Source of the DNA: a virus
Taxonomy: Duplodnaviria; Caudoviricetes
IMG/VR virus record: IMGVR_UViG_3300033486_000001
Span: 1 to 64,000 of that record
Direction: 5' to 3' (one strand)
Length of the DNA stretch: 64,000 nt
Part shown: one piece after another, positions 3,016 through 63,725 of the stretch
Position numbering within the stretch: the first letter of the stretch is position 1
How the letters are laid out: the number at the start of each line of letters is the position of its first letter
The notes under the pieces: model-generated
Told to the model about the DNA's origin: nothing
Databases searched by the model: none
Seen by the model: the letters and a program-made list of their open reading frames with translations, nothing else
Translations under genes and position numbers: made by a program

Positions 3016-3029
3016 CACCAGACCCGCCC

Positions 3030-3035
3030 AATCTT
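3030..3035 (+). promoter_or_regulatory. Candidate phage late promoter AATCTT, 6 nt upstream of ATG 3042
   Basis: Same motif and spacing at 56140, 58327 and 33321-33326 (-, AATCTA); also present at 6990. Confidence 0.6.
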
Positions 3036-3041
3036 TAGCGT

Positions 3042-6000
3042 ATGTCATCCTCTGCGGTCTTTATCGGGACTGGATTCTACGTCACTGGCGCTCAAGTCCG
3101 CGCCGGCAACGTCATTCGCGTTACATTCAGTTCTGCGCCGAAACTCGTCGACCCCACCGCGCTCAATGACGCGCTAAACCGTCTGAATTACACCTTGTCG
3201 GGCCCGGGTCCCGGCTCGTTTGCCGCTGGCCGTATTGTAGTGGGCGATACCTTAAGTGTAGACTTAGAATTGTCCGCATCGTTGGTGGTAGGCCCTTGGG
3301 TCGTTACCGTCAGCGGGGTGGTGTCGTCCACACTTAGCCCGCTCACAGCGCCTACGGCGGCCAATTTTACAGTGCTAGTCGGCGGTAATCGTACCTCACT
3401 GGCCAATGGAGCCCGAAACGACTCAGCCGCACAAATCATTCGCAAGCATCTCAATTCGGCGCTCAGAGGCCCTAATTGGGATTCCGTCATCGCCGCACTG
3501 GCGACTGGCGACGACGCGAACTGGAACAACGCACAGGCGGGCATACAGCAATTATTTCTGGCTTCGGCCACAGGCCAATACCTCGCTAAAAGAGCCTCCG
3601 ACCAAGGCGTGGTGAAGCCACACGACGTCGGAATGGCTGACGAAATCTTCCGCCGACTGGCCATCAAAACCGCCAATGGCGCGTTGCTGCACACAGCCAT
3701 CAAAGACATCCTTGAAGTGTATTACGGTGCTGATAGCTCTAGAGCGTACGCAGAATGCTCGTGCGACGAGCCGTACAATCTCAATTCTCCGGGCGAGTTG
3801 CACTGGACGTTAGACGGCAAGCAGTCTTTCGCCTATGACTTCCCAGAAGTCGACTTCGGATCTCCGCCGGCGGCTCGTGCCGCTGAAGTCGCCTTCGCCT
3901 TGACGCAACACATGCGCCGATTGCGCTCGAGCGGCTTTGCGCTACCCTACCATTCTCCCGACACTGGGCTGAATCGTGTACGCATTTACAGCGGTGCGCT
4001 TGGATTGGGCTCTTCGGTTCAAATCACAGGTGGGCTTGCACAGAACGTATTTCAGTTTCCAACTCTACTTCCGGTCTATTCCGGTAGCGCGGCGGGATAT
4101 AGTTGGGTTTACTCCGCCCCAAACACTAGCACCACTCGCATCTCCTTGACTCTTGACACCTCCATCGTTACGCCGGCGGTAGATGTAGCTGGAGTCCGAG
4201 ACGGTGACTACGTCGCCATAACACCGTCGGCAGGATCCGGCTTGTCCGAGACATACGCCATCAAAAATGTGCGTACGAGTTGGAGCGGGGCACTTTTTAC
4301 CCAAAGCTTTGACATCGACCGCGTCGGCTTCGCGGGCACGGCAGTTCAGCTAGACAACGCCGCCTACACCTTTTACCGAGCGGAAACTAGACGCTTGAGT
4401 GGGCCTCGGTCGGTCTCTGTCGCGCAGACTGCCCCGAATCAGCTCGACGTCATTCTTCCGGCCACAGCACAAGTAGTTGGACGCGACCCGCGGACCGGAG
4501 CTTACCTGCACGCCGCCACCCCACTGGCAATTGCTTCTGTCAAGCGCTTGGCGAGCGGGCGCACGACCATCACAACCACATTGACTCACGGCTTAGGGGC
4601 GGGCGACATCGGACGACACGTCATTCTGGACTCCATCAGTACCTCGAACGCCCTACCGTACGTTTCTCCTGGGAACAGCGCTGTGACACCAGCGGCGTGG
4701 ACGTACAACGCCACACACTTGGGTTTTATCGCTGCCGCCCAGACACCCCCGGCACTTGCCACTCAGTATGGCACCGCCACAACGATCGGAGACAGCGTCA
4801 TTTTTGCTGGTGGCTACAGTTCCGCCGTCACCGGAATCACCAACCACTACACAGCCGTAACTCCGACTATAGTCGCGGAAGGCTCGGAAGCCGACGGTGC
4901 TAGTCGACATTCCCATACGTGGACCGCCGCCAGCCTGACGACAGCGCGTAATTTTCACGCAGCCAGCGAGTACGGAGGAGATCTCCTAGCCACAGGAGGT
5001 CTCGACGGAGGCGGGGCGCCTCTAGCTTCAGCCGAGTTGTATGACACCGCTGCGCACACTTGGAGTTCGGCCGGTTCAATGTCGTTGGCGCGAAGCGGTC
5101 ATCAACAAGTCATGCTTGACGATGGACAAGTGCTATCGATGGGAGGCTCTTCAGCATCACTAACCCCAACGAACACCACAGAAATATACAACGGCACATG
5201 GTCGGCGTCCACCTCTATGATCCACGCGCGCGCAGACTTCCAAGCCGTCAAGCTAAGCGACGGGCGAGTGTTGGCAATCGGCGGCGGCGTGGGCGGAATG
5301 GTATTGGGAGTGTGGACATACCAATCGTCCGATCATACATGTGAAATTTTTGATGGCGTGAGCTGGCAGTCTACCGGATCAATGGCCATGGCTCGAGGTT
5401 GGAGTCAGGCTGTACTTCTGCCGGACGACTACGTCTTGGTCGTGGGCGGCCTCGGCTACCCACCATCACAACCCACAGGTGGGATGGCTAGTCTAGCTAC
5501 GGCGGAAATGTGGAGTCCGGTTACCGGACGCTGGAGCCGCATCGCTAGCCCGTCCATCCGTCGACACTCGCACCTGGCCAAGGCGGTAGGCGACAAGGTC
5601 ATCGTATTAGGAGGGGAATCCTTCGCCGGAGATGACGCTACCGTCGTTGAGTGTTTTGATATAGCCACCAGGACTTGGAGTAGATTGCCGTACAAAATCA
5701 CCAGTTCTGGCTCGCCCTGTTTCGGCGATGTGACCCCATACGGAGAATTGGTATTCTCTGGCGGGAGCGCCACGACCTTTGAGGCGTTCATCGATGGTCA
5801 GGATCGACTAGGCGGTACAGGACTGAGAGATCAGTTCGCTATAACAGCCGTCCCGACGACCACTTCGTTCGAAGTCCAAACAATTACGTCGTCCGGCGCC
5901 ATGCAATACGCCACGTCGTACAGTGTGACTACTCAAACGGGTACCGTCTCTACAGTGAAGGCCGAAGACGGCGCCGTCAACGCCCCAGGCCCCTACACCC

Positions 6001-6551
6001 TAGACCCTTTTCAGGGGATCGCGACGACCGCCACGAGGGCAATAGCCACCACAACTATGTCGGCGGGTCAGCAATACAAGGAACTGACCTTAGATGCCAG
6101 CGGCGCGTCATTTTCTTTGTCTGGGTATATTGCACTCGGCTTCGGGACAAGCCAGCAAAGCAAACCAATCCGATTCCTGGATTGCTACCAGAGCGGACCG
6201 ACCGAATACAAACTCGTGCTCGACTATGCATATCGACTCGAGTTTGACTACGCGGCGGGTGCACAGGTCATTCTTTTGAGTCAGCAAGCACCGTTCGACC
6301 CCGAACACGGAGAGACTCTGGGTCTCTTCTATCTAACCGCCTCTTCTGCCGGTCGAGTCGCCGCGCAACAGGCGGTGTTGGACGCTGTCGCATCAGGAGT
6401 CGACGCCAACATCCAAATCGTTTACCCAGGCGATACTGGGCTAGGCGGGGCTGGGTTGCCCACATATGGCGCTCAAAAACTATCCGACATAGCTAGCGTG
6501 TTTGCCGGAGATGAAGTGGACTCCGAAGTCCAGACAAGGCGGAACAGCTAA
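3042..6551 (+). CDS. Baseplate wedge-like protein with an internal Kelch beta-propeller
   Basis: ASATGQYLAKRA...DEIFRRLAI...AIKDILEVYYG resembles baseplate wedge domains; 6-7 Kelch repeats (ARxxH...LLATGG...AELYD...W) at ~4760-5790. Confidence 0.65.
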   Translation: MSSSAVFIGTGFYVTGAQVRAGNVIRVTFSSAPKLVDPTALNDALNRLNYTLSGPGPGSFAAGRIVVGDTLSVDLELSASLVVGPWVVTVSGVVSSTLSPLTAPTAANFTVLVGGNRTSLANGARNDSAAQIIRKHLNSALRGPNWDSVIAALATGDDANWNNAQAGIQQLFLASATGQYLAKRASDQGVVKPHDVGMADEIFRRLAIKTANGALLHTAIKDILEVYYGADSSRAYAECSCDEPYNLNSPGELHWTLDGKQSFAYDFPEVDFGSPPAARAAEVAFALTQHMRRLRSSGFALPYHSPDTGLNRVRIYSGALGLGSSVQITGGLAQNVFQFPTLLPVYSGSAAGYSWVYSAPNTSTTRISLTLDTSIVTPAVDVAGVRDGDYVAITPSAGSGLSETYAIKNVRTSWSGALFTQSFDIDRVGFAGTAVQLDNAAYTFYRAETRRLSGPRSVSVAQTAPNQLDVILPATAQVVGRDPRTGAYLHAATPLAIASVKRLASGRTTITTTLTHGLGAGDIGRHVILDSISTSNALPYVSPGNSAVTPAAWTYNATHLGFIAAAQTPPALATQYGTATTIGDSVIFAGGYSSAVTGITNHYTAVTPTIVAEGSEADGASRHSHTWTAASLTTARNFHAASEYGGDLLATGGLDGGGAPLASAELYDTAAHTWSSAGSMSLARSGHQQVMLDDGQVLSMGGSSASLTPTNTTEIYNGTWSASTSMIHARADFQAVKLSDGRVLAIGGGVGGMVLGVWTYQSSDHTCEIFDGVSWQSTGSMAMARGWSQAVLLPDDYVLVVGGLGYPPSQPTGGMASLATAEMWSPVTGRWSRIASPSIRRHSHLAKAVGDKVIVLGGESFAGDDATVVECFDIATRTWSRLPYKITSSGSPCFGDVTPYGELVFSGGSATTFEAFIDGQDRLGGTGLRDQFAITAVPTTTSFEVQTITSSGAMQYATSYSVTTQTGTVSTVKAEDGAVNAPGPYTLDPFQGIATTATRAIATTTMSAGQQYKELTLDASGASFSLSGYIALGFGTSQQSKPIRFLDCYQSGPTEYKLVLDYAYRLEFDYAAGAQVILLSQQAPFDPEHGETLGLFYLTASSAGRVAAQQAVLDAVASGVDANIQIVYPGDTGLGGAGLPTYGAQKLSDIASVFAGDEVDSEVQTRRNS

Positions 6552-6989: not shown

Positions 6990-6995
6990 AATCTT
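6990..6995 (+). promoter_or_regulatory. Candidate late promoter AATCTT upstream of the tail fibre gene (leader with SD CAGGAG)
   Basis: Motif lies in the 38-bp gap before ATG 7025. Confidence 0.5.
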
Positions 6996-7024
6996 GTTGG
7001 TAACTACCCCCTCAGGAGCCTCTA

Positions 7025-9976: not shown

Positions 9977-10274
9977 GATTACATATGCAAATCCCCTACG
10001 TGAGCGTCACAACCTTGACGGTATGGCCATTAAGGCACTCGGAGTGTGGAAGCGCGGCGTCGACTCGATCGACAACGCTACCGGTTCCGAGTTCAACCAG
10101 GAGCTAGACACCATGGTAACACGCTTTATTCGTTCACTGCAACCAGGCAAAATCGAAGTGGAAATCTTGTACCAGCAATTCTTGCGATGCGCACAAGAAG
10201 CTTCAAATCAGATCCGCGCCAATGAAGAGCGTAGGAATAGTGCCCAGGAGGCATCGCCAAATGTCGGAGTTTAA
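9930..10274 (+). CDS. Hypothetical protein in the lysis cassette (start uncertain; could be ATG 10023)
   Basis: Fills the gap between the holin-like gene and the endolysin; contains the AGGAGG that serves the endolysin. Confidence 0.45.
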   Translation: MQPSGLSAASSRHASRITYANPLRERHNLDGMAIKALGVWKRGVDSIDNATGSEFNQELDTMVTRFIRSLQPGKIEVEILYQQFLRCAQEASNQIRANEERRNSAQEASPNVGV

Positions 10275-12937: not shown

Positions 12938-13198
12938 CTAAAAAGATGAAGTCGCCATCTTGCGTTGTGTAGCTTCTAGCACCAACACCCAACAATCTCC
13001 ATCGTGCCTCATGTCTAGTGTCGCAAAAGGACTTCCGCCGCAATTGTGCAACATCGGGGTGTTGGCGATTTGTTGCAGCAGTTCGACCTGCTCGCGACGT
13101 GACTCCGGAGAGCCATGAGCGCACGGCTCGGAGCGATACTCCAACGACACTTGCTCCAAGCCGCCGCCCAGGTCAGAGCGATGTAACGTCTTCTTCAC
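12938..13198 (-). CDS. Hypothetical protein
   Basis: Start overlaps the stop of the upstream gene. Confidence 0.55.
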   Translation of the reverse strand: MKKTLHRSDLGGGLEQVSLEYRSEPCAHGSPESRREQVELLQQIANTPMLHNCGGSPFATLDMRHDGDCWVLVLEATQRKMATSSF

Positions 13199-15170: not shown

Positions 15171-15725
15171 TCAGTCTCCCAAAATCGCGTCGATAAAGCC
15201 GGCCTTCAGCGCCTCTGCTGCCGTGAAGTATGTTTCTTTCTCGCACCACTTAGCCATTTGCTTCTCTGAAGCGCCGCTACGGCGAGCTAAGAGGCTTTGG
15301 TAGCGCCGATTAGACAGATTACACTCCTCATTGAGTCGATTGAGCCCCTTAGTGTCAATGTCATCGCCCGACATTGTCATGGTGGCATTATGCACCATCA
15401 TCATGGCATTCGCCGTCATAATCCGCTTCTTCCCGGCCTGCAAGAGCACGGCTCCGATAGAATACACGCCACCGACGCCGAAAGTGGTGGTGGGGTTTTT
15501 GCAATTGTGAATCACGTCGTACAAACCCATGCCGGCGTCACTGTCGCCCCCAGGGGTCGAGATATGGACACCAATGGGACCTTTGGTCTCATCCAACATG
15601 AAAATTCCCGGTAGCAAGTCTTGAGCCAACTTATCTGAAATCGCGCCGAAGATGTAAACTCGGCGGGCGGAAAAGTCGATGCCAGAAGACTTGGCTGTAT
15701 CTAGGCGCTGCGTCTTGGTAGTCAT
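15171..15725 (-). CDS. clpP: ClpP-like peptidase (S14 family)
   Basis: HISTPGGD, GVYSIGAVLLQAG, MMMVHN, ETYFTAAEALKAGFIDAI. Confidence 0.85.
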   Translation of the reverse strand: MTTKTQRLDTAKSSGIDFSARRVYIFGAISDKLAQDLLPGIFMLDETKGPIGVHISTPGGDSDAGMGLYDVIHNCKNPTTTFGVGGVYSIGAVLLQAGKKRIMTANAMMMVHNATMTMSGDDIDTKGLNRLNEECNLSNRRYQSLLARRSGASEKQMAKWCEKETYFTAAEALKAGFIDAILGD

Positions 15726-33319: not shown

Positions 33320-33898
33320 TTAGATTCCGGCGGACAGACCGGACAGAATTTTTCGGAGGTGAGCTATAAGAATCTCTTTGAGGCTCGCTACGACTAGTTC
33401 GGCTGTGGAATATTGCTCGAAGTACATGTTGAGTATCTGGATGTTGTTGACTGCGGCGATACGTAAGGCCTGCCCAGTGCCACCAGTCGGCCTGCCACCG
33501 GCCGTCCAACAAACCACCGCCTGAACCGGAGATTGTAGGTCCAGACCGAGAACCTGTGCGCTGTTGCGCGCCATAAGCTTCCGAGCGCCGTCCTTTAGAC
33601 GGTCCCACGTCGGATGGAACTGTCTAGCGTGCGCCATTAGTTCCGTCCAATTGTTGGGGACCACAAGTTGGCCTCCCAGTCTATTGGCCTGCTCTTCAAA
33701 GGAAGACCACGGGAGGTATGCCGTACAACATTGCGCGGCTCCACACTCGAAAGCTTGGTCTGCACCCGGAGCGTGTCCGGAACGGATTTGTATTTTGTTG
33801 GCCGCGCACCACTGGCCGATTTTTACCATCTCGGCCAAGATAGAGCCGGGTGTTTCTCTACTGCCGATGCCGGCGATTGCGAGTTGAGAGTCAAGCAT
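33320..33898 (-). CDS. SLOG-superfamily (DprA/YspA-like) protein
   Basis: IAGIGSRETP, RSGHAPGADQAFE, GGTGQALRIA. Confidence 0.75.
   Translation of the reverse strand: MLDSQLAIAGIGSRETPGSILAEMVKIGQWCAANKIQIRSGHAPGADQAFECGAAQCCTAYLPWSSFEEQANRLGGQLVVPNNWTELMAHARQFHPTWDRLKDGARKLMARNSAQVLGLDLQSPVQAVVCWTAGGRPTGGTGQALRIAAVNNIQILNMYFEQYSTAELVVASLKEILIAHLRKILSGLSAGI
33321..33326 (-). promoter_or_regulatory. Candidate late promoter AATCTA, 6 nt before the RuvC-like ATG
   Basis: Same spacing as AATCTT-N6-ATG at three + strand late genes. Confidence 0.5.
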
Positions 33899-33907
33899 GG
33901 TGACGCC

Positions 33908-33917
33908 ATTATACCAC
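33908..33917 (-). promoter_or_regulatory. Extended -10 GTGGTATAAT, 9 nt before ATG 33898
   Basis: Repeated motif. Confidence 0.6.
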
Positions 33918-43086: not shown

Positions 43087-43538
43087 TTCGCCCCGATCGC
43101 GTCAGTGTAATTCCCGGATATGCTAGTCATACCATTGCCATCGACAAGAATCGCGGTAGGAACCAAGGTCATTCCACTGCCAGAAGTCTTGAGGGTCTGA
43201 CGACTAGGAACGTTCACATACAACTCCTCCACAAGCTGAATAAAATTCTTGGGGACCAGAATGAACGTCTTGTCGCCAATACTGTAGACGTCCTTGGCCC
43301 ACTGCTGGGTGTACAAATCTCCGCGCAACCACACCTTGACACCTGGAGCGTACTGCTCACAACCCTCTCCGGATGCAGGAAAGACCACTTCGAGTTGTTG
43401 CAGATCGATCTTGTTGGCGATTAGCACCATCCCTCCGACTACCTTCTTTTCGATGTGGCGGGCTGGGAATGGCGTACAAGCCACGAGGCCGTTGGTGGTA
43501 GAAATCGCAGACGTTTCATTTGTGGAACTGGTGGTCAT
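43083..43538 (-). CDS. GroES-like co-chaperonin
   Basis: Mobile-loop-like EKKVVGGMVLI; PGVKVWL...IGDKTFILVPKNFIQLVE resembles GroES VGDIVIF...IDNEEVLIMSESDILAIVE. Confidence 0.6.
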   Translation of the reverse strand: MTTSSTNETSAISTTNGLVACTPFPARHIEKKVVGGMVLIANKIDLQQLEVVFPASGEGCEQYAPGVKVWLRGDLYTQQWAKDVYSIGDKTFILVPKNFIQLVEELYVNVPSRQTLKTSGSGMTLVPTAILVDGNGMTSISGNYTDAIGAK

Positions 43539-44596
43539 GATAGCGTTATCCCTTTCAAGCGCAGCATCTTTTGCTCTACCACGGACAAACTCTTGAGTCC
43601 AGCATGAATTGTGGCCAGAGCCTGCGTCCGCTCGACAATCACGTCTGGACGGTGCTCTTCGTCATCCATGTAACACTCGAGAGTGGTATCGCCAGTCTCT
43701 TGGTCAACCGCGCAATCACCTGAAACGTGGCTGGCTGCAGCAAGGAGGCCTTGGATTTCGGGGCCGGTCACATGGTATTTTTCCGGGATGTTTTCGTTGA
43801 CGGCAGCTACAACCAGGTCGATATCGGCGTTCTTGTCGAGAAACCTGGAGGCCTTATGGGCACGATACACGCGTCGTGCGTCTACAGGCCATAGGTGCAA
43901 AAGTGTGGAATTGTAGGCCTCTATCCTATCTCCGCACATACGCCCGAGGGCGACGCTTCTGAATACTTTGTACGCGGCCAGTTCTTCCTCATTAGTCATG
44001 TTGTCGTGGGTATTGGGGTTAAATTTGTCAATCGCAACCTGTAACCCTATTGTATGGGTCTGTATTAGATCCAGGAACGACATGTGAGATCGAGGGGTTT
44101 GGTTCCAGAATGTGCGACAATAGCTGATCGCCAAAGGCAGATTCATGGTCATGATTTCGACGCGCATTTTTTCGATTTCTCGGATGGTGGCGCGAATTTC
44201 AGGAGTCAATGTAGGTCCGGCGGAGTTCAACACCCACTTGGCAAATTGGTAATTCAGCTTGTATGGGTGCAGCCCAGCGCCATTCCGGTCCTTGAAGAGC
44301 TGCGAAATCTCAGCAGAAAAACGCTCTTGGCGCTCGCGGAAGAAGGGCCGACTCGAAAGAATATTCCGCTTCTCGGTGCAGATATATGTGATGAATGAGT
44401 CGTACACACTTGCACCGTAAACCTCCCACAATTGATCTTGAAGTTTCCGTTCAGAGGCGATAAGGGACTTCAACTGCCGACGCTGAGTGTGTAGGCGGTC
44501 GACTTCATCGGTTTTTGGGATTCGACCGATCGCTGCCGTCAAACTCTTGGCAAAGCTCTTAAAATAGACGTCGCTTGTGTCATAGCCACCAATCAT
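43535..44596 (-). CDS. Phage sigma70-family factor ending in region 4.1 (no 4.2 HTH)
   Basis: Region 2: MNLPLAISYC...DLIQTHTIGLQVAIDKFNP; region 3.2-like HVSGD; ends LKSLSVVEQKMLRLKGITLS*. Confidence 0.8.
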   Translation of the reverse strand: MIGGYDTSDVYFKSFAKSLTAAIGRIPKTDEVDRLHTQRRQLKSLIASERKLQDQLWEVYGASVYDSFITYICTEKRNILSSRPFFRERQERFSAEISQLFKDRNGAGLHPYKLNYQFAKWVLNSAGPTLTPEIRATIREIEKMRVEIMTMNLPLAISYCRTFWNQTPRSHMSFLDLIQTHTIGLQVAIDKFNPNTHDNMTNEEELAAYKVFRSVALGRMCGDRIEAYNSTLLHLWPVDARRVYRAHKASRFLDKNADIDLVVAAVNENIPEKYHVTGPEIQGLLAAASHVSGDCAVDQETGDTTLECYMDDEEHRPDVIVERTQALATIHAGLKSLSVVEQKMLRLKGITLS

Positions 44597-44630: not shown

Positions 44631-45572
44631 CTAGTATACCACAAGCCATTCGAGAATCTTCTTGATGGTTCCAGCGCGATCTGCTTCGTACTCCGCCTCT
44701 GGGATTCTCAAGAGTTGAATGCCAGCTTCGGCGCATTGCTCGTTTTTACGTCGGTCTTTATCTTCGCTGCCCGGCAGTGAGTGCCAATATACCCCGTCGT
44801 ACTCAATGGCTTTTTTGAGAGATGGGATGTAGATGTCGAGTTCAAGACGTTTGTAGCGTAAAACGCTTCTGACTCCACTGACCGCATCCGTATATTTTTC
44901 TTTGATGTCACTGAAGATGGCTAACTCGGCCTTGGAGTGACGATGGGTGCAACGGGAACAACCTTGCGGCTTACCCGGCTTAGTCCTGTTATTCGGAGAC
45001 GAAAACCATACGTGCCCTTTCGAACAAATCCACTTTCGCTTTTCTTTGGCTCCATAGGGGGTGTCGCAGAACCTCTCTTCGTTGTCTGGATGCCACTCTT
45101 TCTCTAGATGGGGAGCTTTTGTCGCCAACGAATTCGCGGCGGAGACTCGATGTCCGCTACATTCCGGACAACCACTACGGCTCTTTCCAGCTCTAGTACA
45201 GGGGACTGCCCACCATACGTGCCCTTTAGAGCACACCCACTCTCGCTTGGGCCACGAAGCTCTGGCAAACACGCCATCAAACGGCTCTGTATTGTTCGGT
45301 CCCCATTCCGACCTAAGCCAAGGGGCTTTTGTCGCCAAAGAGCGTTCGATTGGTACGATCTTAAAACACTCGCTACATCCAGTGCCTCTGTCACGTCTAA
45401 TCCGTTTACGTACAGTTGCCTCCCATTTATGACCTAGAGGGCATATCCACAAACACTTCTCTTTGTAGACGAGTGTCACATCATCAAAACTGACAGTATT
45501 CTCCGGGCTCCACTCGGATCTCAAGTGGGGTGCCTTGATAGCCAACGAATTTGGTTTGCGGCCCGCCATCAC
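44631..45572 (-). CDS. Zinc-ribbon-repeat endonuclease (Vsr/EDxHD-like), putative homing endonuclease, paralog 1
   Basis: Three W.C..GH.W...C..C repeats plus ELDIYIPSLKKAIEYDGVYWH. Confidence 0.8.
   Translation of the reverse strand: MMAGRKPNSLAIKAPHLRSEWSPENTVSFDDVTLVYKEKCLWICPLGHKWEATVRKRIRRDRGTGCSECFKIVPIERSLATKAPWLRSEWGPNNTEPFDGVFARASWPKREWVCSKGHVWWAVPCTRAGKSRSGCPECSGHRVSAANSLATKAPHLEKEWHPDNEERFCDTPYGAKEKRKWICSKGHVWFSSPNNRTKPGKPQGCSRCTHRHSKAELAIFSDIKEKYTDAVSGVRSVLRYKRLELDIYIPSLKKAIEYDGVYWHSLPGSEDKDRRKNEQCAEAGIQLLRIPEAEYEADRAGTIKKILEWLVVY
44633..44642 (-). promoter_or_regulatory. Extended -10 GTGGTATACT upstream of the sigma gene
   Basis: Encoded by the last codons of the upstream endonuclease gene. 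Confidence 0.6.
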
Positions 45573-46814: not shown

Positions 46815-47951
46815 TCAAGGGGTTTGTAGCCACTCCAAGATTTTCTTGATGGTGCCATCCCGGTCGGCTTCGTATTCGGCTTCTGGGATTCTGAGGAGCT
46901 GGATTCCGACTTCGATACACTGTTCATTTTTATGGAGATCTGCACCCACTTTGTCGGGTAGCGAGTGCCAATACGTCCCGTCATACTCTATGGCTTTACG
47001 AAGTGATGGCACGTAAATATCGAGCTCTAACCTTGTAGAGCGGAGTAGTCTACGTGCCCCATTGATTGTGTCGGGATACCTCTCTAAAACCAATTCGTAT
47101 ATGTCGAGTTCGGCCTTGGAGTGCTGTTTAGTACAACTTGGGCAGTTGCAACCCCTAGCTCTAGTTTTGGGAGACGTCTCCCATTCGTGTCCATAACGAC
47201 AAATCCACCAAACTTCAATGTCCATTCCAATCGACAAAGACTCGAAGCTTCGTGTATTTTTGGTGGGGTGAAATTCAGATCTTAAGTTTGGGAACAGTAC
47301 GGACAATGAGTTATTGTCTGTGACCCTCTTGCCGGTGCAAAAAGGACAACCGAGGCCCATTAAAGAGCGATGGTCGATGCTGTCGCTCCACGAATGGCCT
47401 TGGTCGCAAATCCACCAAACTTTCTTATTGGATGCAAAAGCTACTTGACTTGGAGAGAGTTTGTTTTTGGCCGAGTCCCATTGTATTGCGAGTCGAGGGT
47501 TTTTGGAACTGAGGGAGTTAAGATCCGATACGCGATTATGAGAACAGTAAGGGCACCCCTGCCCCAATGTTCTAGACGCCACTCTAGACTGCCACTCGTG
47601 TCCTAGTCGGCACATCCACCACACTTTTCTTCCAGAAGAAACCGTTAAAGACTCAAGTGGTGTCGAATTTTTAGGGGAGTATTCTCCCCGGAACTGAGGA
47701 AAAAGAACAGACAGAGAGTTCTTGTCGGTTACAAGTCGACCAGAACAATAGGGGCATCCGGTCGGATTTTTTGCTTTTGCTCTATTCTTTACAACAGACT
47801 CCCATTCATGTCCTTTACTACAGATCCACCAAGCCAGCCTCTCCGAGCCGGCGCTATAGAAAGAGAAAGGGAGCACATTCTTAGTAGGATGAAATTCTGC
47901 ACTCAACCAAGGAGCGACAGAGGATAATGAGTTTGTAGGTAATTTGTCCAT
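46815..47951 (-). CDS. Zinc-ribbon-repeat endonuclease, paralog 2
   Basis: Four WW.C..GH.W...CPYC repeats plus ELDIYVPSLRKAIEYDGTYWH. Confidence 0.8.
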   Translation of the reverse strand: MDKLPTNSLSSVAPWLSAEFHPTKNVLPFSFYSAGSERLAWWICSKGHEWESVVKNRAKAKNPTGCPYCSGRLVTDKNSLSVLFPQFRGEYSPKNSTPLESLTVSSGRKVWWMCRLGHEWQSRVASRTLGQGCPYCSHNRVSDLNSLSSKNPRLAIQWDSAKNKLSPSQVAFASNKKVWWICDQGHSWSDSIDHRSLMGLGCPFCTGKRVTDNNSLSVLFPNLRSEFHPTKNTRSFESLSIGMDIEVWWICRYGHEWETSPKTRARGCNCPSCTKQHSKAELDIYELVLERYPDTINGARRLLRSTRLELDIYVPSLRKAIEYDGTYWHSLPDKVGADLHKNEQCIEVGIQLLRIPEAEYEADRDGTIKKILEWLQTP

Positions 47952-47987: not shown

Positions 47988-49472
47988 CTACATTTTGACG
48001 ATTTTCACCGGTCCATAAATGTCCTCAAAAATCCGCTTGCGAGCCAACGCGTGTGCGTGCACCGTACGGATGTTGGTCACGTCAAAGTCGATTATGTTGC
48101 AGGAAGTCTTGTTGAGAGGTTTGAAGGGGCGTGTGCAACGACCTACACCTTGGCGAACCTCCACTTCGGATTTGCCGCCTCGAAGGTAAAACATTGTCTT
48201 AACTGACTTGAAATCGGTGCCCGTCGCCACACACGATGTAGCCACAAGTATGGGGAATTCCGACGCATTAAATTGCTTGACAAGCAAATCGTTGTCACAC
48301 TCATGGTACTTTTCCGGGACTTTCGACTTGTTATCGGCCAGAGGCCCGTGAGCGAAACGGCATTCGTGCTGAAAATGCGGAAGCAACTCGGCAAACTGAG
48401 AGACCTCGTCAACCAGTATCAAAACCTGATGTCCTGACACAGCAACACTCTGGTTGGCAATGACTGCGGCGCGCTTGAAAACTTCTGGGTTGTAAAAGAA
48501 ATGCTTGCGGGTCATCTCGTTCGGATCGGCACTCTCAAACTCGACGTGTGACTGTACAGGAACCATGAAGAATACAGGTTTGGCGAGGTAGCCGCCGTCG
48601 ACACCTTGACGTACAGTCAGTTCCAGAACGGTATGTCCGGTGAGAGAATCTAGGAGTTTTCCAGATCCGTCCCCACGAATTTGCGTGGCACTGAAATTGA
48701 ATCGATAAGGCGCGTTCGCCATGACCCCAAGAGCTACATGACAGAAAGTCTGTGCAGCAATTGTATGCGACTCGTCTGTAATAAAAACCTCACACTTGGA
48801 AAGATCTTCCCATTCCTTCGAACCGACCTCAGCCCGAGTTAGAGACTGCCCAGTTCCGATTACGAACAACTTGTTGGACTCTTTTTTGCCTCCGTAGAAT
48901 TTCCCAACGTACTTCTTGCCAAAGTGCTTGACGAAGTCCTCGTAGAGTTGCCCGGAAATGCTGGCAGAAGGTGCCATGATGACTGTCTTAAGCCCTAATG
49001 CTTTTGCAAGAAGTAGTACAATGTACGACTTGCCCGTACCCGTAGCTAATTCAACCCTCGCGTGCTTCGCTTCCAACAGCCGATCTCGCGCTTCGATTTG
49101 GTACGGATATGGCGTCCGGTCTGGCACCACAGCCCACGGGATGTTTTTGGGTTCCGGGTAAACCACCTTGTTGGTTACCGTGCAGCCGTATTTCGATTTT
49201 AAGGCCTCTAGCAGCCCGCTGTTGACGTAATGACGTCCGGACCCATCTCGGCTTAGGAGGCACACCTTCTGACTCGCCTGAAGCTCAGCCAGGCGGCTTG
49301 CGTACGCTTCCGGTCCGAACTTGTTGGCGTACCACGTCGCGTGCTGGAACTTCTTGAGTTCAAAAGCCACTGAAGTGTCGGTGTATGTAAGTTCCTCTTG
49401 AAGGGACTTCAGCTCCGACGGAGTCGCGTCGTCGACGTACAGCTTCGTGGGGGTTTCTAGGGTCAGTTTCAT
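47988..49472 (-). CDS. SF2 DNA helicase (UvsW-like)
   Basis: PYPYQ, LATGTGKS, TDESH, FSAT, VATGTDF, RQGVGRCTR; start reassigned to 49472 (SD GGAGG, ATGA overlap). Confidence 0.88.
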   Translation of the reverse strand: MKLTLETPTKLYVDDATPSELKSLQEELTYTDTSVAFELKKFQHATWYANKFGPEAYASRLAELQASQKVCLLSRDGSGRHYVNSGLLEALKSKYGCTVTNKVVYPEPKNIPWAVVPDRTPYPYQIEARDRLLEAKHARVELATGTGKSYIVLLLAKALGLKTVIMAPSASISGQLYEDFVKHFGKKYVGKFYGGKKESNKLFVIGTGQSLTRAEVGSKEWEDLSKCEVFITDESHTIAAQTFCHVALGVMANAPYRFNFSATQIRGDGSGKLLDSLTGHTVLELTVRQGVDGGYLAKPVFFMVPVQSHVEFESADPNEMTRKHFFYNPEVFKRAAVIANQSVAVSGHQVLILVDEVSQFAELLPHFQHECRFAHGPLADNKSKVPEKYHECDNDLLVKQFNASEFPILVATSCVATGTDFKSVKTMFYLRGGKSEVEVRQGVGRCTRPFKPLNKTSCNIIDFDVTNIRTVHAHALARKRIFEDIYGPVKIVKM

Positions 49473-50945: not shown

Positions 50946-51023
50946 GAAGTTTGCCGCCCTACTGCTGGTGTCCTTGTTCTCTTGTCCGGGGACTCTGGGT
51001 TGAACTTTAGGGCGGCAAACTTC
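50946..51023. repeat. Perfect 16-bp inverted repeat in the leader of gene 51077
   Basis: GAAGTTTGCCGCCCTA (50946-50961) / TAGGGCGGCAAACTTC (51008-51023). Confidence 0.9.
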
Positions 51024-55020: not shown

Positions 55021-56148
55021 ATGGATCTCAAACCGAATTCATTGACTATTAAGGCGCCGCACTTGAGATCCGAGTGGAGTTCGGAGAATACCGTCAATTT
55101 TGACGATGTGTCGTATGGTTCACAAACCAAATACAAGTGGGTGTGCGTAAACGGACACAAATGGGAGGCGTCTCCTAACAGGAGAACTGACAAGGGGCGG
55201 CGAGGGTGTTCGCGGTGCCCTAGGAACTCTTTGGCTGAGAAAGCTTCGCAGATGGCTTGCGAGTGGCATTCAGACAATCCTAAGAGGTTCCATGAGGTGT
55301 CATTCGGGTCTGTCGTGAAGTACAAGTGGATATGCGTCAAATGCCAGCACATATGGGTCGCGTCCCCCAACAGCAGGACTCACCTCAAGAGACCAACCGG
55401 ATGTCCCGAGTGCTTTAAGAGAGTTACTGATGCTAACTCACTAGCGACGAAAGCACCCCACTTGAAGCTTGAGTGGCATTCGAGTAACTCCAAACAATTC
55501 CACGAAGTCCATTGTGGATCCAATGATTTGTACATGTGGATATGCCGACTTGGGCATACCTGGACCACGACACCGAACCATCGAACAAAGGTCGGCAGGA
55601 AAAGTGGATGTCCGGACTGCGCTCACAGACGTGTTTCAGAACTCAACTCCTTAGCGACAAAAGCTCCGTGGTTGGAAAAAGAGTGGCACTTTAGCAACAA
55701 AAAGAAGTTCCATGAGGTGGCGTACGCTTCACCCACTAAATACACGTGGATTTGCGCCAAAGGACATACCTGGGACGCACAGTGTGGTAGCCGGACACGC
55801 AAGAACTCTACTGGATGCCCAGAGTGTCATTGTTCGACTTCAAGGGCTGAGCAAGCCATTTTTTGTGTCGTTAAGGAAAAATATCAAGATGCCGTCAACA
55901 AAACACGTGGTTTGCTTCGCTCCAAAACACTCGAACTCGATATTTACATTCCATCGCTCAAGAAGGCGATTGAATACGATGGGACCTATTGGCACTCGTT
56001 CCCTGGAGCTATAGAGCGGGATGTCAGAAAAAATCAGCAGTGTATCGAGGTCGGAATTCAGCTCCTCAGAGTTTCCGATCAAGAGTATGAAGCGGATCGC
56101 GAAGGTACTGTCGCCAAGGTTCTTGCTTGGCTTGAGGGCAATCTTTGA
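55021..56148 (+). CDS. Zinc-ribbon-repeat endonuclease, paralog 3
   Basis: Four W.C..GH.W...C..C repeats plus ELDIYIPSLKKAIEYDGTYWH; SD AAGGAG. Confidence 0.8.
   Translation: MDLKPNSLTIKAPHLRSEWSSENTVNFDDVSYGSQTKYKWVCVNGHKWEASPNRRTDKGRRGCSRCPRNSLAEKASQMACEWHSDNPKRFHEVSFGSVVKYKWICVKCQHIWVASPNSRTHLKRPTGCPECFKRVTDANSLATKAPHLKLEWHSSNSKQFHEVHCGSNDLYMWICRLGHTWTTTPNHRTKVGRKSGCPDCAHRRVSELNSLATKAPWLEKEWHFSNKKKFHEVAYASPTKYTWICAKGHTWDAQCGSRTRKNSTGCPECHCSTSRAEQAIFCVVKEKYQDAVNKTRGLLRSKTLELDIYIPSLKKAIEYDGTYWHSFPGAIERDVRKNQQCIEVGIQLLRVSDQEYEADREGTVAKVLAWLEGNL
56140..56145 (+). promoter_or_regulatory. Candidate late promoter AATCTT, 6 nt before the TerL ATG
   Basis: Conserved motif and spacing. Confidence 0.6.
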
Positions 56149-58296: not shown

Positions 58297-58326
58297 CTCC
58301 ATATGGTACAATGGTCGCTAGAACGG

Positions 58327-58332
58327 AATCTT
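58327..58332 (+). promoter_or_regulatory. Candidate late promoter AATCTT, 6 nt before ATG 58339 (TGGTACAAT also present at 58304-58312)
   Basis: Conserved motif and spacing. Confidence 0.55.
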
Positions 58333-58338
58333 GACCAT

Positions 58339-59319
58339 ATGGATGCATTCTTAAACACGACCTTTCAAATTCAGGCTTACGCCGACCGTCCGGCCAACTC
58401 CAATCCGCGTCTGCGTGCGGTTGATTGGCGCCGGGATCTCTCCGGCCAAGCCGTATCTAACCCCAAGTCTGAATCCGTACAGCTTGTAGCCGGGGAAACT
58501 CGTACGCTCTTCAATGGACTTCGTACGACGACCTTGGACGGCACCACGGCGTTTACGATGTCGCTGTCGACTCTCGAGTCCGGCCGCTACCGCTTCACCA
58601 AAGTCGCTGGAACTGACCCGAGTCTTCGCCCCAGCCGAGGGCTTACGCTCAATACAGTTGCTGTCACTGCCGTGGCGTTGGCCAACGGTTCGCTGACAAT
58701 GACTGTACCCGGACCAGCCGCTTTCACCGGTGTCGTGGCTGGTGACATCGTGTTTGTCCCCAACACCAATACCGGTGACGCCGCCAACGTTTTCTCGATC
58801 TCTAATAGCGGATATTGGGTTGTGATGGCGGTGCTGTCTCCGCAGTCCCTGAGTCTCACCCGCCTCCCCGGCGCTTCCTTCGAGGGTGTGAGCGAAGTCG
58901 TAACGTTGACGTCTAATGCGCAACTCCGAGCTTATTCTGCAGCCGGAGTGCAAGTCGATGACTCGGTGTCGATTTCGGCTGGATTCGCCACGGCCACGCA
59001 AAAGACATACGATGTAGTGGCCGTCACAGACACCTTCTTTGAAGTGCGCAGTTCACTCCCGCTCCCCCTTGAGTCGTCCGTCATCCCGACCGCGGTCGGC
59101 CTGGTGTTCTACTCCAGCGCGAAGAATTTCTTGTACGTTGAAGGCGACCAAGAGTTTGTAATCCGCCTCAACGGCTCTACGGACTCGACACAGCGAGTCT
59201 CACCGGTGTCGGCCGGAGAAATCCCCGGAGCATATTTCAAGAACGGTCCGACTTGGTCGCTGGCTGTAGTTAATATGTCTTCCACGTTGCTCAATTTGAT
59301 GGTAATCGGAGCCGAATGA
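58339..59319 (+). CDS. Virion structural protein
   Basis: Beta-rich Thr/Val/Ser composition; between TerL and portal; start reassigned to 58339. Confidence 0.6.
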   Translation: MDAFLNTTFQIQAYADRPANSNPRLRAVDWRRDLSGQAVSNPKSESVQLVAGETRTLFNGLRTTTLDGTTAFTMSLSTLESGRYRFTKVAGTDPSLRPSRGLTLNTVAVTAVALANGSLTMTVPGPAAFTGVVAGDIVFVPNTNTGDAANVFSISNSGYWVVMAVLSPQSLSLTRLPGASFEGVSEVVTLTSNAQLRAYSAAGVQVDDSVSISAGFATATQKTYDVVAVTDTFFEVRSSLPLPLESSVIPTAVGLVFYSSAKNFLYVEGDQEFVIRLNGSTDSTQRVSPVSAGEIPGAYFKNGPTWSLAVVNMSSTLLNLMVIGAE

Positions 59320-62300
59320 TGAAAACTACCATATCCGACTTGCTCGCTCCAGCCATCACGGTCCCCGTCAAGGCTAAGCGGACTTACGCCATCGAGGCCG
59401 TTGACAAAACCCCGAACGACAACGCCTATGAAGCCCTGAACAAGTCTTTGATGTCGCTGGATGGAGAAAAGGATCAGCCAGTCCAACGTCTAGCGTTCGA
59501 AATTGATCCGGTCACCGGACAGAGTGTTTATGCATCACTGTACCGACCTAAGCAAAAAGGGCTGTCTGACATCATCCTGAAGCGGCTGTCGGTCCAGGCC
59601 TCTATCGTAGCGTCTATTACTAACGCCCGCGGCAATCACGTGTCCGCCTTCGGTCGCCCACAGCCAGATCGTTTTTCCACCGGCTTTAAGATCAAGCCAA
59701 ACCCGAAACATGTAGAGAAGCTCAGTCAAGAAGAAAAAGAAGAGCTCCAGCATCGCATCGGTAAGGCCGAGAAGTTGATGTTGACGTGTGGAAAGAAGTC
59801 TGACGGCGACAGCACCAAAGATCTTTCTTTCTCTCAGTTTTTGTTCATGACTACGCGCAACGCACTAATTTTCGGGCGTGTTGCCGTGGAAGCGATTCCG
59901 GACGGGGAGGACAAGTTCCACTCGTTCCGACCGATCGATGCTGGGACGATTTATTTCTCGACAGCACAAAAAGAGGCCGCCGACAACGTACGGCGTCAAG
60001 CACAAAACTTGCTGGCGCGCCTCAAGAATGAAGCTCCTCAAAATTTCATAGATTCCAAGGGGCGCAACGTAGACGAGCTCTTCGGAAGTGATGAATATGC
60101 TTGGGTCCAGGTCATCAACGACATCCCACGGCAGTTCTTCACAGCAAAAGAGTGTCTGGTTCATAACTTTTATCCGGTCACCGACATCGAACAAGTCGGA
60201 TATCCGCTGACACCTCTGGACACTGTAGTTTCGGATGTCACGACTTTCATCAACATCACCACACACAACCGGTTGTTCTTCCAGAGTGGTCGCGCAAGCC
60301 GTGGCGCAGTGGTGTTGCAATCTGACGACATCGACGATATCGATTTGCAGCATATTCGCCAGCAATTTCAAGCGAACATCAATGGCGTTGGGAACTCGTG
60401 GCGCACTCCGATGTTCAAAGTCGGTAAGGACGACAAGGTTGACTGGTTTAGTATTGACTCCAATGCCCGGGATCAAGAATTTCAGTACCTCAGCGATTCA
60501 AATGCACGCACTATTTTGAGTGGATTTCAGGTATCTCCTGAGGAAATCAGCGGGTACGGGCACCTCTCGAGGGGCACCAATAGTCAGGCGTTAAGTGAGT
60601 GTTTTGACCCGTCGAGCTACCTCTGGACAAACACGGGACTTCGCACCGCAGAAAGTATTTTGGGGGACGAACAGGAAACTCCACTTCAGATCTGGACGGG
60701 TTCGGATTGGCAGAACGCCCGGTTGTTTCGCACTGGAGAAAAAGAACTAGTCGAAACCCATGTCAATGGGTACAGTATCAAAACATCTCCAGATCACCGA
60801 TTCCGCGTTTTGTCGGAATCCGGAGAATTGATTTGGAAGAAGCAGCAGGAGCTCTGTACCGGCGATTTGTTGGTTATGAACGCAAAGCCGGTTCCTGGAG
60901 CGCCGGAACTAATCCCCTCTTTCCGTGGTCAAAAACTGACTGTCGAGATGGTGGAGCTTTTGGGGTGGATGACCGGTGACGGCTCTTTGGTCGGACCTCG
61001 GAAGCGCATTGGTGGGTATTTGAAGCTGTTTTACCATCCGGTTCGTGAGCGCGAAATCTGGGATCGACACGCCCAGCTCCTATCGGACTTCGGGTTCAAC
61101 GTCAAACATCATGAACGTCAAATCAGCGAAGAGGAAGTCGAGAAGATCAAAGCCCAGAGAGGTTTCGCTTCGGTAGCGTCTAGTCGGATAACTAATACCG
61201 TTTATGACACCGAATTCGTGGGGTGGCTGCATGGATTGGGGTGTGGGTATAGTCATGAAGGCAAGACAATCCCGCCAATATTCCATGTTCTCCCTGTTGA
61301 GTATCGTCAGGCGTTCCTTCGAGGGCTTTTCTCGGCTGACGGTCATACGCCCCAAGGCGGAGCTGTGGTGTTGACCATACAAGATGACCGAACGAGAGAG
61401 CAAGCCCGTCAAATGCTATTGGGGTTGGGTATCAGGACGCTTGGGTGTGATGGTATTTTGAGAGAGAGTCTTGGTCAAGGTAAGGTGTTTAGCCACAAGC
61501 TGTTTATCAAAGATCGCAATTTATTCTGGGAGCAGATCGGCTTCATCCAGCCACACAAGATCGCCCGTCGAACACCTCAGAAGTTCGCGCGTGGTTTTGT
61601 TCCAGTGTCATTGGCTTCTAAGTTGCTTGCTCCGGTCATCGAGTCCGCTATTTTTGCCGGATGGGACAAAAAGACTAAAGATAATATCAGGGGTTGCGCT
61701 GGAGCATACTCCGCTCCTCGACATATCACCTGGAGACAATTACGTTTGGTGTTGGAGCAAGCCCTGGGAGCAGCGCCGTCTTGGTTGACGGACTATCACC
61801 TGGAGCCAGTGACTGATTTGATTGCACATCAGTCCAAGATGTTGATGGTTGACGTTGAGGTCTTTGATTCACGGCATGCACAGATTCTCCAGGGTTTTCA
61901 AGTACACAACTCGAACAACGAATATGTGCTCGAAGCACACCGAGACACCGGCATTCGCCCCCTGCTTTGGCAAATGCAAACATTCATCAACGACCGCATC
62001 TTCCCGTTGATCGACGCGGAACTCGCTAAGATCTGCACATTCGAATTCGTCGGACTCGACGCCGAGACGGCCGAAAAAGAGACGACGCGCCTACAAACGG
62101 ACGCCACCGTCCACATGACGTACGACCAAATCCTCCAGAAGGTCGAAAAGAAGCCGCTCGGGGCCAAGTGGGGCGGTACTTTCCCTCTCAACCCAGCCTT
62201 CCAACAAATCTTGGACAGGTACATGACGGTCGGTCAGATTCTCGAGGGGTTTTTCGGCGTCGCGGGCGCCGGCAAGGACCCCCGCCTTGACTACTGCCGT

Positions 62301-62738
62301 GATGAGTATTGGTTCCGACAGGTTGACGTCCTTAATCAGAAGCAGCAACTCGAACAGCAGACCCAGATGCAAGCCCAACAAGCGGCTCAAGGTGCTCAAC
62401 AATCCGGAAATTCCGGACAGTTGCCACAAGGCTCTACAGTCCCCCAAGGCGACCAACAGCCTGCACCCCAGCAAGATGCCAACCAATCCCAGAACGCGCC
62501 ACAGCAAGCTCCACAGCCCCAGCAAGACCCGAACCAACCCGACCTCTCTACCGGAATTGACCAGCTCGCAGGGATTTTGAACAAGTCTGAGAGCCAACTC
62601 CCCGTCTCGAAGCGGCACCTGTTGGCGCAGCAACGATTGTTTATCTCGCACGCCATGTCGGCGCTAGAAGAAGAGTCGAAACTAGCCATCAAAGAAATTT
62701 CGGGAATCGCCAAACAGCACATTGCGCCGACCAAGTAG
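59316..62738 (+). CDS. Portal protein interrupted by an intein
   Basis: Portal-like RPIDAGTI, HNFYP, YPLTPLD, FQYL; Gln-rich C-terminal tail; follows TerL. Confidence 0.85.
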   Translation: MMKTTISDLLAPAITVPVKAKRTYAIEAVDKTPNDNAYEALNKSLMSLDGEKDQPVQRLAFEIDPVTGQSVYASLYRPKQKGLSDIILKRLSVQASIVASITNARGNHVSAFGRPQPDRFSTGFKIKPNPKHVEKLSQEEKEELQHRIGKAEKLMLTCGKKSDGDSTKDLSFSQFLFMTTRNALIFGRVAVEAIPDGEDKFHSFRPIDAGTIYFSTAQKEAADNVRRQAQNLLARLKNEAPQNFIDSKGRNVDELFGSDEYAWVQVINDIPRQFFTAKECLVHNFYPVTDIEQVGYPLTPLDTVVSDVTTFINITTHNRLFFQSGRASRGAVVLQSDDIDDIDLQHIRQQFQANINGVGNSWRTPMFKVGKDDKVDWFSIDSNARDQEFQYLSDSNARTILSGFQVSPEEISGYGHLSRGTNSQALSECFDPSSYLWTNTGLRTAESILGDEQETPLQIWTGSDWQNARLFRTGEKELVETHVNGYSIKTSPDHRFRVLSESGELIWKKQQELCTGDLLVMNAKPVPGAPELIPSFRGQKLTVEMVELLGWMTGDGSLVGPRKRIGGYLKLFYHPVREREIWDRHAQLLSDFGFNVKHHERQISEEEVEKIKAQRGFASVASSRITNTVYDTEFVGWLHGLGCGYSHEGKTIPPIFHVLPVEYRQAFLRGLFSADGHTPQGGAVVLTIQDDRTREQARQMLLGLGIRTLGCDGILRESLGQGKVFSHKLFIKDRNLFWEQIGFIQPHKIARRTPQKFARGFVPVSLASKLLAPVIESAIFAGWDKKTKDNIRGCAGAYSAPRHITWRQLRLVLEQALGAAPSWLTDYHLEPVTDLIAHQSKMLMVDVEVFDSRHAQILQGFQVHNSNNEYVLEAHRDTGIRPLLWQMQTFINDRIFPLIDAELAKICTFEFVGLDAETAEKETTRLQTDATVHMTYDQILQKVEKKPLGAKWGGTFPLNPAFQQILDRYMTVGQILEGFFGVAGAGKDPRLDYCRDEYWFRQVDVLNQKQQLEQQTQMQAQQAAQGAQQSGNSGQLPQGSTVPQGDQQPAPQQDANQSQNAPQQAPQPQQDPNQPDLSTGIDQLAGILNKSESQLPVSKRHLLAQQRLFISHAMSALEEESKLAIKEISGIAKQHIAPTK
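60600..61910 (+). mobile_element. Intein with a LAGLIDADG homing endonuclease (437 aa)
   Basis: Starts CFDPSS; block B TSPDHRF; LLGWMTGDGS and FLRGLFSADG; ends VHN followed by Ser+1. Confidence 0.92.
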
Positions 62739-63372: not shown

Positions 63373-63404
63373 TTGACATCGGAACCCAACCCGCGGTAAT
63401 ACTC
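63373..63404 (+). promoter_or_regulatory. Early-type promoter copy 1: TTGACA-N18-TAATACT
   Basis: Shares TTGACATC...CCAACCCGCGGTAATACTC with copy 2. Confidence 0.7.
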
Positions 63405-63436: not shown

Positions 63437-63685
63437 ATGACTAAGACAACTAAAACCGTTGCTGAGCACTACCCCTTGGGTACTCGCCTGATGCACCCCT
63501 CCTACCCTTGGAGTGTGTGGACCGTGAGCGAGGTGCGCGTGACCATTGACGGAGCCGGACACCACGTGGACTACGCGTTGGAGGGTACGGAGGTGCGTGG
63601 CGCGGCTCGCTGGTCGGCGGCGGAGATGTTCGTGCCAGCACCCGATGAATCGGCCTTTGAATCTCCCCACTACTTCGCCGACTAA
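63437..63685 (+). CDS. Hypothetical protein
   Basis: SD GAGG; downstream of the promoter. Confidence 0.65.
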   Translation: MTKTTKTVAEHYPLGTRLMHPSYPWSVWTVSEVRVTIDGAGHHVDYALEGTEVRGAARWSAAEMFVPAPDESAFESPHYFAD

Positions 63686-63693
63686 ATCGGCCA

Positions 63694-63725
63694 TTGACAT
63701 CACCATCCAACCCGCGGTAATACTC
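63694..63725 (+). promoter_or_regulatory. Early-type promoter copy 2
   Basis: TTGACATCACCATCCAACCCGCGGTAATACTC. Confidence 0.7.

Follow-up and report, generated by a model that had tools for sequence, protein, structure and literature searches.

A candidate single-element late promoter, AATCTT, set directly before some start codons in Mx1-like phages

Late transcription in bacteriophage T4 depends on the sigma factor gp55 acting at an TATAAATA box at -10, together with the co-activator gp33 and the clamp gp45. It is one of several described systems with which we compare the hexamer AATCTT, and its variant AATCTA, as found before genes in a 64,000-nucleotide (nt) stretch of a tailed-phage genome (Caudoviricetes); this stretch, hereafter the window, comprises bases 1-64000 of the 75,316-bp IMG/VR viral record IMGVR_UViG_3300033486_000001 (G000), for which CheckV gives a completeness of 46%. 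As in T4, there is a single -10-type box with no -35 element, many of the putative promoters lie directly before virion genes, and the phage encodes a sigma-family protein that would be unable to read a -35. The box sequence is different, however, and the sigma homologue still has regions 3 and 4.1, while gp55 amounts to little more than region 2; T4 late messages also differ in having leaders that carry a Shine-Dalgarno (SD) sequence.

phiEco32's gp36-dependent promoters, both middle and late, are also single-element (PMC8948821). Host core polymerase and a phage sigma factor serve these promoters while host sigma70 serves the early genes, which resembles what we propose; they are not reported to have a leaderless arrangement. 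Both the consensus and the phage group are unrelated to those considered here, and the phiEco32 promoters described there were mapped experimentally, whereas ours are predicted from sequence. In the Thermus phage phiYS40 the middle and late transcripts are largely leaderless (PMC3594737); it uses the host polymerase, and a -10 box adjoining the open reading frame (ORF) is common in that phylum (PMC12340547). The expression of later genes from leaderless mRNAs is shared with our proposal, but here only some of the late genes would be leaderless, and a phage sigma factor is implicated. Extended -10 promoters of the sigma70 type likewise need no -35, have conserved bases within -17 to -13 together with A-11 and T-7, and start 7 nt downstream at a pyrimidine/purine step, as is predicted here; their extension is TGn rather than R-n-C-G-C, and their hexamer TATAAT rather than AATCTT. 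The announcement of the genome of Myxococcus phage Mx1, a relative of the phage studied here, is silent on promoters (PMC10720576), and we found no description of this motif in the literature on the Mx1 genome, myxophages, AATCTT late promoters, or Mx1 late genes and sigma factors.

The comparisons reported below suggest that AATCTT is very probably the single -10-type box of late-gene promoters in Mx1-like phages. The best overall explanation, to which we give a probability of about 0.65, is a single-element late promoter that yields leaderless messages where the box stands 6 nt before a start codon, and that has a phage sigma factor as its reader. In such a promoter class AATCTT, less often AATCTA, would occupy positions -12 to -7 of a fuller consensus, R(-17) n C G C(-13) AATCTT, lacking a -35 box, and transcription would begin 7 nt beyond it, with a purine that follows a pyrimidine. 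If there are exactly 6 nt between the box and an ATG (those at 3042 and 58339, probably 10023, and possibly 56152 and 33314), the mRNA would begin at the start codon and be translated without an SD; where it lies elsewhere (genes starting at 7025 and 67205), the message would have a short leader carrying one. The likely reader would be host core RNA polymerase with the putative phage sigma factor encoded at 43535-44596, in a cascade that would lead from host sigma to phage sigma to the AATCTT promoters.

Placement and anatomy of the sites

A megablast search with 5 kb around TerL gave no match among GenBank phages; by tblastn the closest cultured relative is Mx1 (OR576727.2; 169,621 bp), with 39.6% identity between the two TerL proteins over 98% of the length. 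Three uncultured relatives were also compared: G001 (103 kb, protein identity to G000 of ~75-92%), G002 (57 kb, ~97%) and the complete genome G004 (168,622 bp, ~47-62%). The original prediction had named five copies of the box in the window, four of them 6 nt before an ATG and a fifth upstream of a leader, and all five are indeed present (3030, 56140, 58327, 33326 and 6990). They are listed here with a further variant and two associated features.

3030-3035, plus strand: candidate late promoter box AATCTT, with CGCCC before it (3025-3035 together); predicted +1 at the A of ATG 3042
3042-6551, plus strand: tail-module gene of 1169 amino acids (aa) with Kelch repeats; predicted leaderless message
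6990-6995, plus strand: candidate late promoter box AATCTT with a leader; predicted +1 at about 7002, AGGAG at 7014-7018, tail-fibre ATG at 7025
10011-10016, plus strand: variant box AACCTT, 6 nt before ATG 10023 of an 83-aa ORF; not among the five originally named
33321-33326, minus strand: AATCTA before the RuvC-like gene, 6 nt before ATG 33314 and overlapping the TAA of the upstream DprA-like gene; uncertain
56140-56145, plus strand: AATCTT before TerL, 6 nt before ATG 56152; uncertain
58304-58312, plus strand: TGGTACAAT, an extended -10 box of the host type, situated 15 nt ahead of the box at 58327; conserved in G001 and in the relative L031
58327-58332, plus strand: AATCTT before the conserved 326-aa gene that follows TerL, 6 nt before ATG 58339

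The arrangement AATCTW-N6-ATG occurs four times in the window against an expectation of 0.71, a number reached by one of 100 shuffles (the mean in 200 further shuffles of G000 is 0.8), and there are 11 occurrences in G001 and eight in Mx1, compared with 1.1 and 1.5 respectively in dinucleotide shuffles. Shuffle controls that demanded a long ORF were set aside as unfair because shuffling destroys ORFs, and they are not relied on. On the plus strand of G001, eight of the 23 AATCTT copies lie exactly 6 nt before an ATG, and no other spacing from 0 to 30 is represented more than twice; in Mx1 the sole clear peak is also at 6 (seven of 80 plus-strand hexamers). Enrichment at -12 to -7 of gene starts, in this genome and in its relatives, had been put forward as a check and is borne out not only by this spike but also by hexamer ranking: AATCTT is the commonest hexamer at -12 to -7 of candidate starts in G000 and G001, where it exceeds every SD hexamer, and is the top non-SD hexamer in Mx1. 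Variants of the box with one mismatch are rare at this spacing, and only the AACCTT at 10011 looks real.

A census of G000, G001, Mx1 and G004 took each AATCTW outside gene interiors that has a gene start downstream of it in the same orientation, either at 6 nt or with an SD-like core, as judged with a simple heuristic gene caller; after removal of three obvious false positives this gave 58 sites. With the exception of the RuvC pair in G000 and G001, they all (56/58) lie on the virion-gene strand, and the genes behind them include those for fibre, protease, sheath, portal-neighbour and similar proteins, from whose functions we infer late expression. The start codon is exactly 6 nt from the box at 24 of the 58 sites and 10-49 nt away at the other 34, and there is not a single site at 7-9 nt; all of the 34 leader sites have an SD-like core (GGAG, GAGG, AGGA and the like) before the start codon. 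Lineages vary in the extent to which promoter and start codon are fused: the six-nucleotide layout accounts for 3/23 sites in G004 (~13%), 7/16 in Mx1, and 14/19 (~74%) in G000 and G001 taken together, these two genomes sharing orthologous sites.

Alignment of the 58 sites, numbered on the assumption that transcription starts 7 nt downstream of the box, reveals an A at -11 without exception, and either a T (49 sites) or an A (nine sites) at -7. These are the positions that are flipped out by sigma70-family factors, and the A-11 and T-7 of a sigma70-family -10 hexamer are thus both found. Upstream of the box there is added information only at -17 and at -15 to -13; position -17 is a purine in 53 sites and never a T, and -13 is a C in 39 and never an A. 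None of the positions from -57 to -23 reaches 0.13 bit, and there is therefore no -35 element; this, together with the location before virion genes, is the arrangement of a single-element late promoter. Of the GG and GC, 10 nt apart, that mark a sigma54 (-24/-12) promoter, the sites have G-14 and C-13 but lack the GG at -26/-25 (0.12 and 0.04 bit); because no information lies upstream of -18, both the sigma54 type and the -35/-10 type are rejected. The testable sequence predictions of a -10-only promoter that starts at the A of the ATG, as originally suggested, therefore hold with respect to the spacing spike, the lack of a -35 and the A-11/T-7 pattern.

Bacterial start sites favour a pyrimidine at -1 and a purine at +1. 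All 24 six-nucleotide sites have a pyrimidine immediately 5' of the start codon, compared with 183 of 360 SD-led starts in these genomes (Fisher p = 3e-7), which is the signature expected of a start at the A of the ATG. Among the 34 leader sites, where the bases concerned are not dictated by a start codon, the sixth nucleotide beyond the box is a pyrimidine in 27 (and a G in one) and the seventh a purine in 30. The start codons at the six-nucleotide sites are ATG in 23 cases, GTG in one and TTG in none, and this matches the RTG rule, by which leaderless translation needs ATG or GTG at the 5' end (PMC4633059). We also agree with the earlier observation that the four genes first named lack an obvious SD, in that neither GGAG, GAGG nor AGGA is found within 4-13 nt of their starts; TerL has a GAGG 14 nt upstream, which is too far away for an SD. 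Most G000 genes, unlike these four, carry a plain AGGAG-type SD, and since SD-led genes are in the majority the host evidently uses the SD and its absence at these genes is meaningful. Both the missing SD and the ATG or GTG start expected of leaderless genes are thus present.

It could be argued that the promoter is real but that the genes at six-nucleotide sites are translated from read-through messages by coupling or reinitiation, the spacing being a product of genome compaction. Stop codons do lie 3-26 nt before these starts (at TerL within the spacer, at RuvC overlapping the box), and the 3030 box is lineage-specific: G004 has none at this point, and there the 3042 orthologue abuts its neighbour as TAAATG. 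However, compaction predicts neither a peak at 6 alone, with spacings of 5 and of 7-9 empty, nor the pyrimidine that all 24 sites have at -1, nor a set of starts confined to ATG but for the one GTG; and the gene at 58339 has a 300-nt gap upstream and no SD. We thus consider this explanation distinctly unlikely.

Individual sites and their counterparts in related phages

Comparison of orthologous genes shows that the box can be kept while the distance to the start codon changes. The 1874-aa tail gene and a 132-aa gene, for example, have the six-nucleotide layout in G001 but a box with an SD leader in Mx1 (39 and 18 nt to the start codon, respectively), whereas the prohead protease gene has a leader in G001 and in G000 (box 67184 and start 67205, just beyond the window, with a short SD-bearing leader between them) and the six-nucleotide layout in Mx1, where the ATG at 13023 is 21 nt inside the annotated start at 13002 (Mx1 13002-13025). 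For the tail-fibre gene the layout with a leader is found in each of the four genomes. The most extensive series is that of the 326-aa gene, where the box lies directly 3' of the TerL stop in 12 of the 12 loci recovered; the layout is six-nucleotide in G000, G001, L031 and Mx1 (annotated start 7617), and eight further relatives (L033-L042) keep the box with a 31-33-nt SD leader. The N-terminus of this protein, MDAFLN, is conserved in 10 relatives and is the same at loci of both layouts. Because the box is fixed while the start switches between 6 nt and an SD leader, it behaves as a promoter and not as a substitute for a ribosome-binding site. If the leaderless reading is true, these leaderless and leader versions of the same promoter-gene pairs would constitute a natural experiment in leaderless translation.

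The same observations bear on the possibility that AAUCUU acts in the RNA, either marking where the message is processed or binding a phage translational factor that stands in for the SD. At the six-nucleotide sites the word does occupy the SD position, in genes without an SD. However, AAUCUU is not complementary to the anti-SD; at the 34 leader sites the word is 10-49 nt from a start codon that has its own SD-like core, orthologues toggle between the two layouts, and the A-11/T-7 pattern and the conserved -17 and -13 are features of a DNA promoter. An RNA-level role is therefore highly improbable.

Two gene starts are corrected by these comparisons. In the window, 58339 is the true start of the 326-aa gene rather than the ATG at 58303, because the upstream ATG in G001 meets an in-frame TGA and the MDAFLN N-terminus is conserved; in Mx1 the protease gene probably starts at 13023 and not at 13002.

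The individual sites differ in the strength of the case that can be made for each as a promoter. At 3030 it is strong: box and distance alike persist in G002 (before an ATG) and in G001 (before a GTG) although both flanks diverge, an in-frame stop precedes the ATG at 3042 by 3 nt, and the N-terminus of the protein, MSSSA.FIG, is conserved in the 47%-identical G004 orthologue. In this protein, first taken for a baseplate component, Pfam detects Kelch repeats and nothing else. It is also strong for 6990, whose box is present before the orthologous fibre gene in G001, G002, Mx1 and G004, and ranks second in G000 with a position weight matrix (PWM) trained on Mx1 and G004 sites only and then scanned over G000; the 29-nt stretch between this box and the ATG includes the AGGAG, as expected from the SD leader first described there. 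The case for 58327 is good. At 10011 the orthologous position in G001 reads AATCTT-gacggt-ATG, and the mRNA of the gene at 10023 would probably begin at its start codon.

The TerL and RuvC sites are uncertain as promoters. The 56140 box scores higher with the PWM than any other hit in G000 and has an equally spaced counterpart, AATCTA, in G001; it lies within the last codons of the HNH endonuclease gene, whose TGA (56146-56148) is 3 nt before the TerL ATG, and because TerL residues 2-7 are poorly conserved Met8 (56173) could be the real start. The 33326 box, which G001 and G002 share, stands alone among the candidate boxes of the window in lying on the early-gene strand; since the DprA-like gene has an TGGTATAAT box of its own, RuvC may simply be co-transcribed with it. 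Thus, of the four leaderless examples first proposed, those at 3030 and 58327 stand, and those at TerL and RuvC are individually weak.

Several observations weigh against a late promoter with starts at these positions. In Mx1 and G004, TerL is SD-led, with no box and no HNH gene upstream, and the RuvC box is absent before the Mx1 gene and not kept in G004; moreover, because the TerL and RuvC boxes overlap the ends of upstream coding sequences, their conservation in close relatives could be coding. The 58327 and 33326 boxes both have a G at -13, which is rare (5/58), and the TGGTACAAT at 58304 may be a second promoter for the gene at 58339. The +1 signal at the leader sites is not sharp, as purines are frequent at +2 and +3 too (26/34 and 24/34). 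The hexamer alone is depleted rather than enriched in the window, with 32 copies where 47.5 are expected, from which it follows that the signal is one of placement and not of number. The information in the motif is ~12-13 bits, and PWM hits of at least 9 bits in G000 (16) show no excess over shuffles (15.6); with so short a motif and no such excess a single site is not callable by its sequence alone, and since genome-wide counting gives no support, the evidence is that of placement and conservation. A word total and PWM hits no higher than random are also what would be seen if a short word and start codons co-occurred by chance, but this is effectively refuted by the comparative data, in which the arrangement recurs independently in G001, Mx1, G004 and the 12 TerL-adjacent loci with the same spacing, strand and orthologous positions.

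Further observations concern sites in the relatives. In G001 (L014) the 3042 orthologue starts with a GTG at the leaderless position (15295-15309), and its ORF there is just 375 aa long, the gene being split or frameshifted. Mx1 has six-nucleotide sites at 47038-47052 and 48186-48200, before small ORFs (142-159 aa) in its tRNA region, of which one lacks an annotation and the other begins 18 nt upstream of an annotated HNH start.

A phage sigma-factor homologue and a second promoter class

The proposed reader and a second group of promoter-like boxes are encoded in the window as follows.

43535-44596, minus strand: phage homologue of sigma factors, spanning regions 2 to 4.1 but lacking the 4.2 helix-turn-helix; proposed to read the box
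44633-44641, minus strand: TGGTATACT, an extended -10 box before the sigma gene; presumably a host-sigma promoter
44641, 39200, 33916, 32607 and 30705 (minus strand), 10805 and 58304 (plus strand): promoter-like extended -10 boxes of the class TGnTA(T/C)A(A/C)T

Searches with the single sigma homologue sequence give weak matches (Pfam E = 1.5e-3; PDB E = 0.01), but a profile of 24 sequences matches primary sigma factors with E = 2.8e-9. The alignment begins at region 1.2/2 and reaches as far as the LTxRE..VL motif in region 4.1, and as the phage proteins end there, the -35-reading 4.2 helix-turn-helix is absent. There are ~160 homologues, nearly all of 337-372 aa, and many of them are on contigs of 140-176 kb. 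Although they share as little as 35% identity (35-79%), the segment aligned to region 2.3-2.4 is nearly invariant among them and unlike that of sigma70, which parallels the invariant and non-canonical box. We found no phage RNA polymerase among the 20 window proteins searched.

These features are relevant to whether the late promoter might instead be read by the host primary sigma holoenzyme with a phage activator, the phage sigma not being the reader. AATCTT shares A-11, T-10 and T-7 with TATAAT, and the link between the phage sigma and the box consists only of their co-occurrence and the missing region 4.2. However, the putative -10-reading segment of the phage sigma differs from sigma70 region 2.3-2.4 and is nearly invariant in parallel with the box, and separate TGnTAyAmT boxes, nearer to the host type, front the replication genes: those of the TGGTATACT type are also found on the replication strand before further genes, among them RNR, GroEL and the DprA-like gene. 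We therefore regard reading by the host holoenzyme as unlikely, and a phage sigma factor as the more probable reader of AATCTT.

A wider and more tentative suggestion, which we find plausible but stop short of calling probable, is that the widespread ~170-kb Mx1-like group as a whole runs its virion genes from RnCGC-AATCTT through a sigma factor that ends before region 4.2, and that these phages tune or exploit leaderless translation in their hosts within the late programme. If the late-promoter reading itself is confirmed, it would present a sigma that naturally lacks region 4.2 paired with a new -10 specificity, and, after phiYS40, a second phage system with late genes expressed from leaderless messages. 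The analysis provides a late-promoter consensus that is concrete enough to test, together with predicted start sites, for a phage group that is large but has hardly been studied and that has a cultivable member in Mx1, grown on Myxococcus xanthus.

In the window, tail-module genes are on the plus strand at 1-13 kb, and a replication and recombination block occupies the minus strand at 14-50 kb and includes DnaE, a DnaB-like helicase, a UvsX-like recombinase, RNR, SbcC and GroEL, as well as the DprA-like gene, the RuvC-like gene and the sigma homologue. Packaging and head genes are on the plus strand from 51 kb, among them the HNH endonuclease gene, TerL and an intein-bearing portal gene, and no tRNA genes were found in the window. 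The HNH gene (55021-56148, plus strand) is one of two related HNH/treble-clef homing-endonuclease genes (phrog_559), the other being at 46815-47951 on the minus strand, and the intein of the portal gene (59316-62738, plus strand; 1140 aa) includes an endonuclease domain of the LAGLIDADG type (Pfam Intein_splicing and LAGLIDADG_3).

Among other promoter-like or repeated sequences, the extended -10 box at 33916 (minus strand) lies 9 nt before the ATG at 33898, and the leader of its message would be ~3 nt. In the head module there is a near-identical TTGACA-N18-TAATACT pair at 63373-63404 and 63694-63725 (plus strand), with the shared spacer CCAACCCGCGG, preceding the ORFs at 63437 and 63763. The large non-coding gap at the strand switch is rich in repeats, and GGGCGGCAAACTT repeats at 50952 (minus strand) and 51017 (plus strand) are weak PWM hits.

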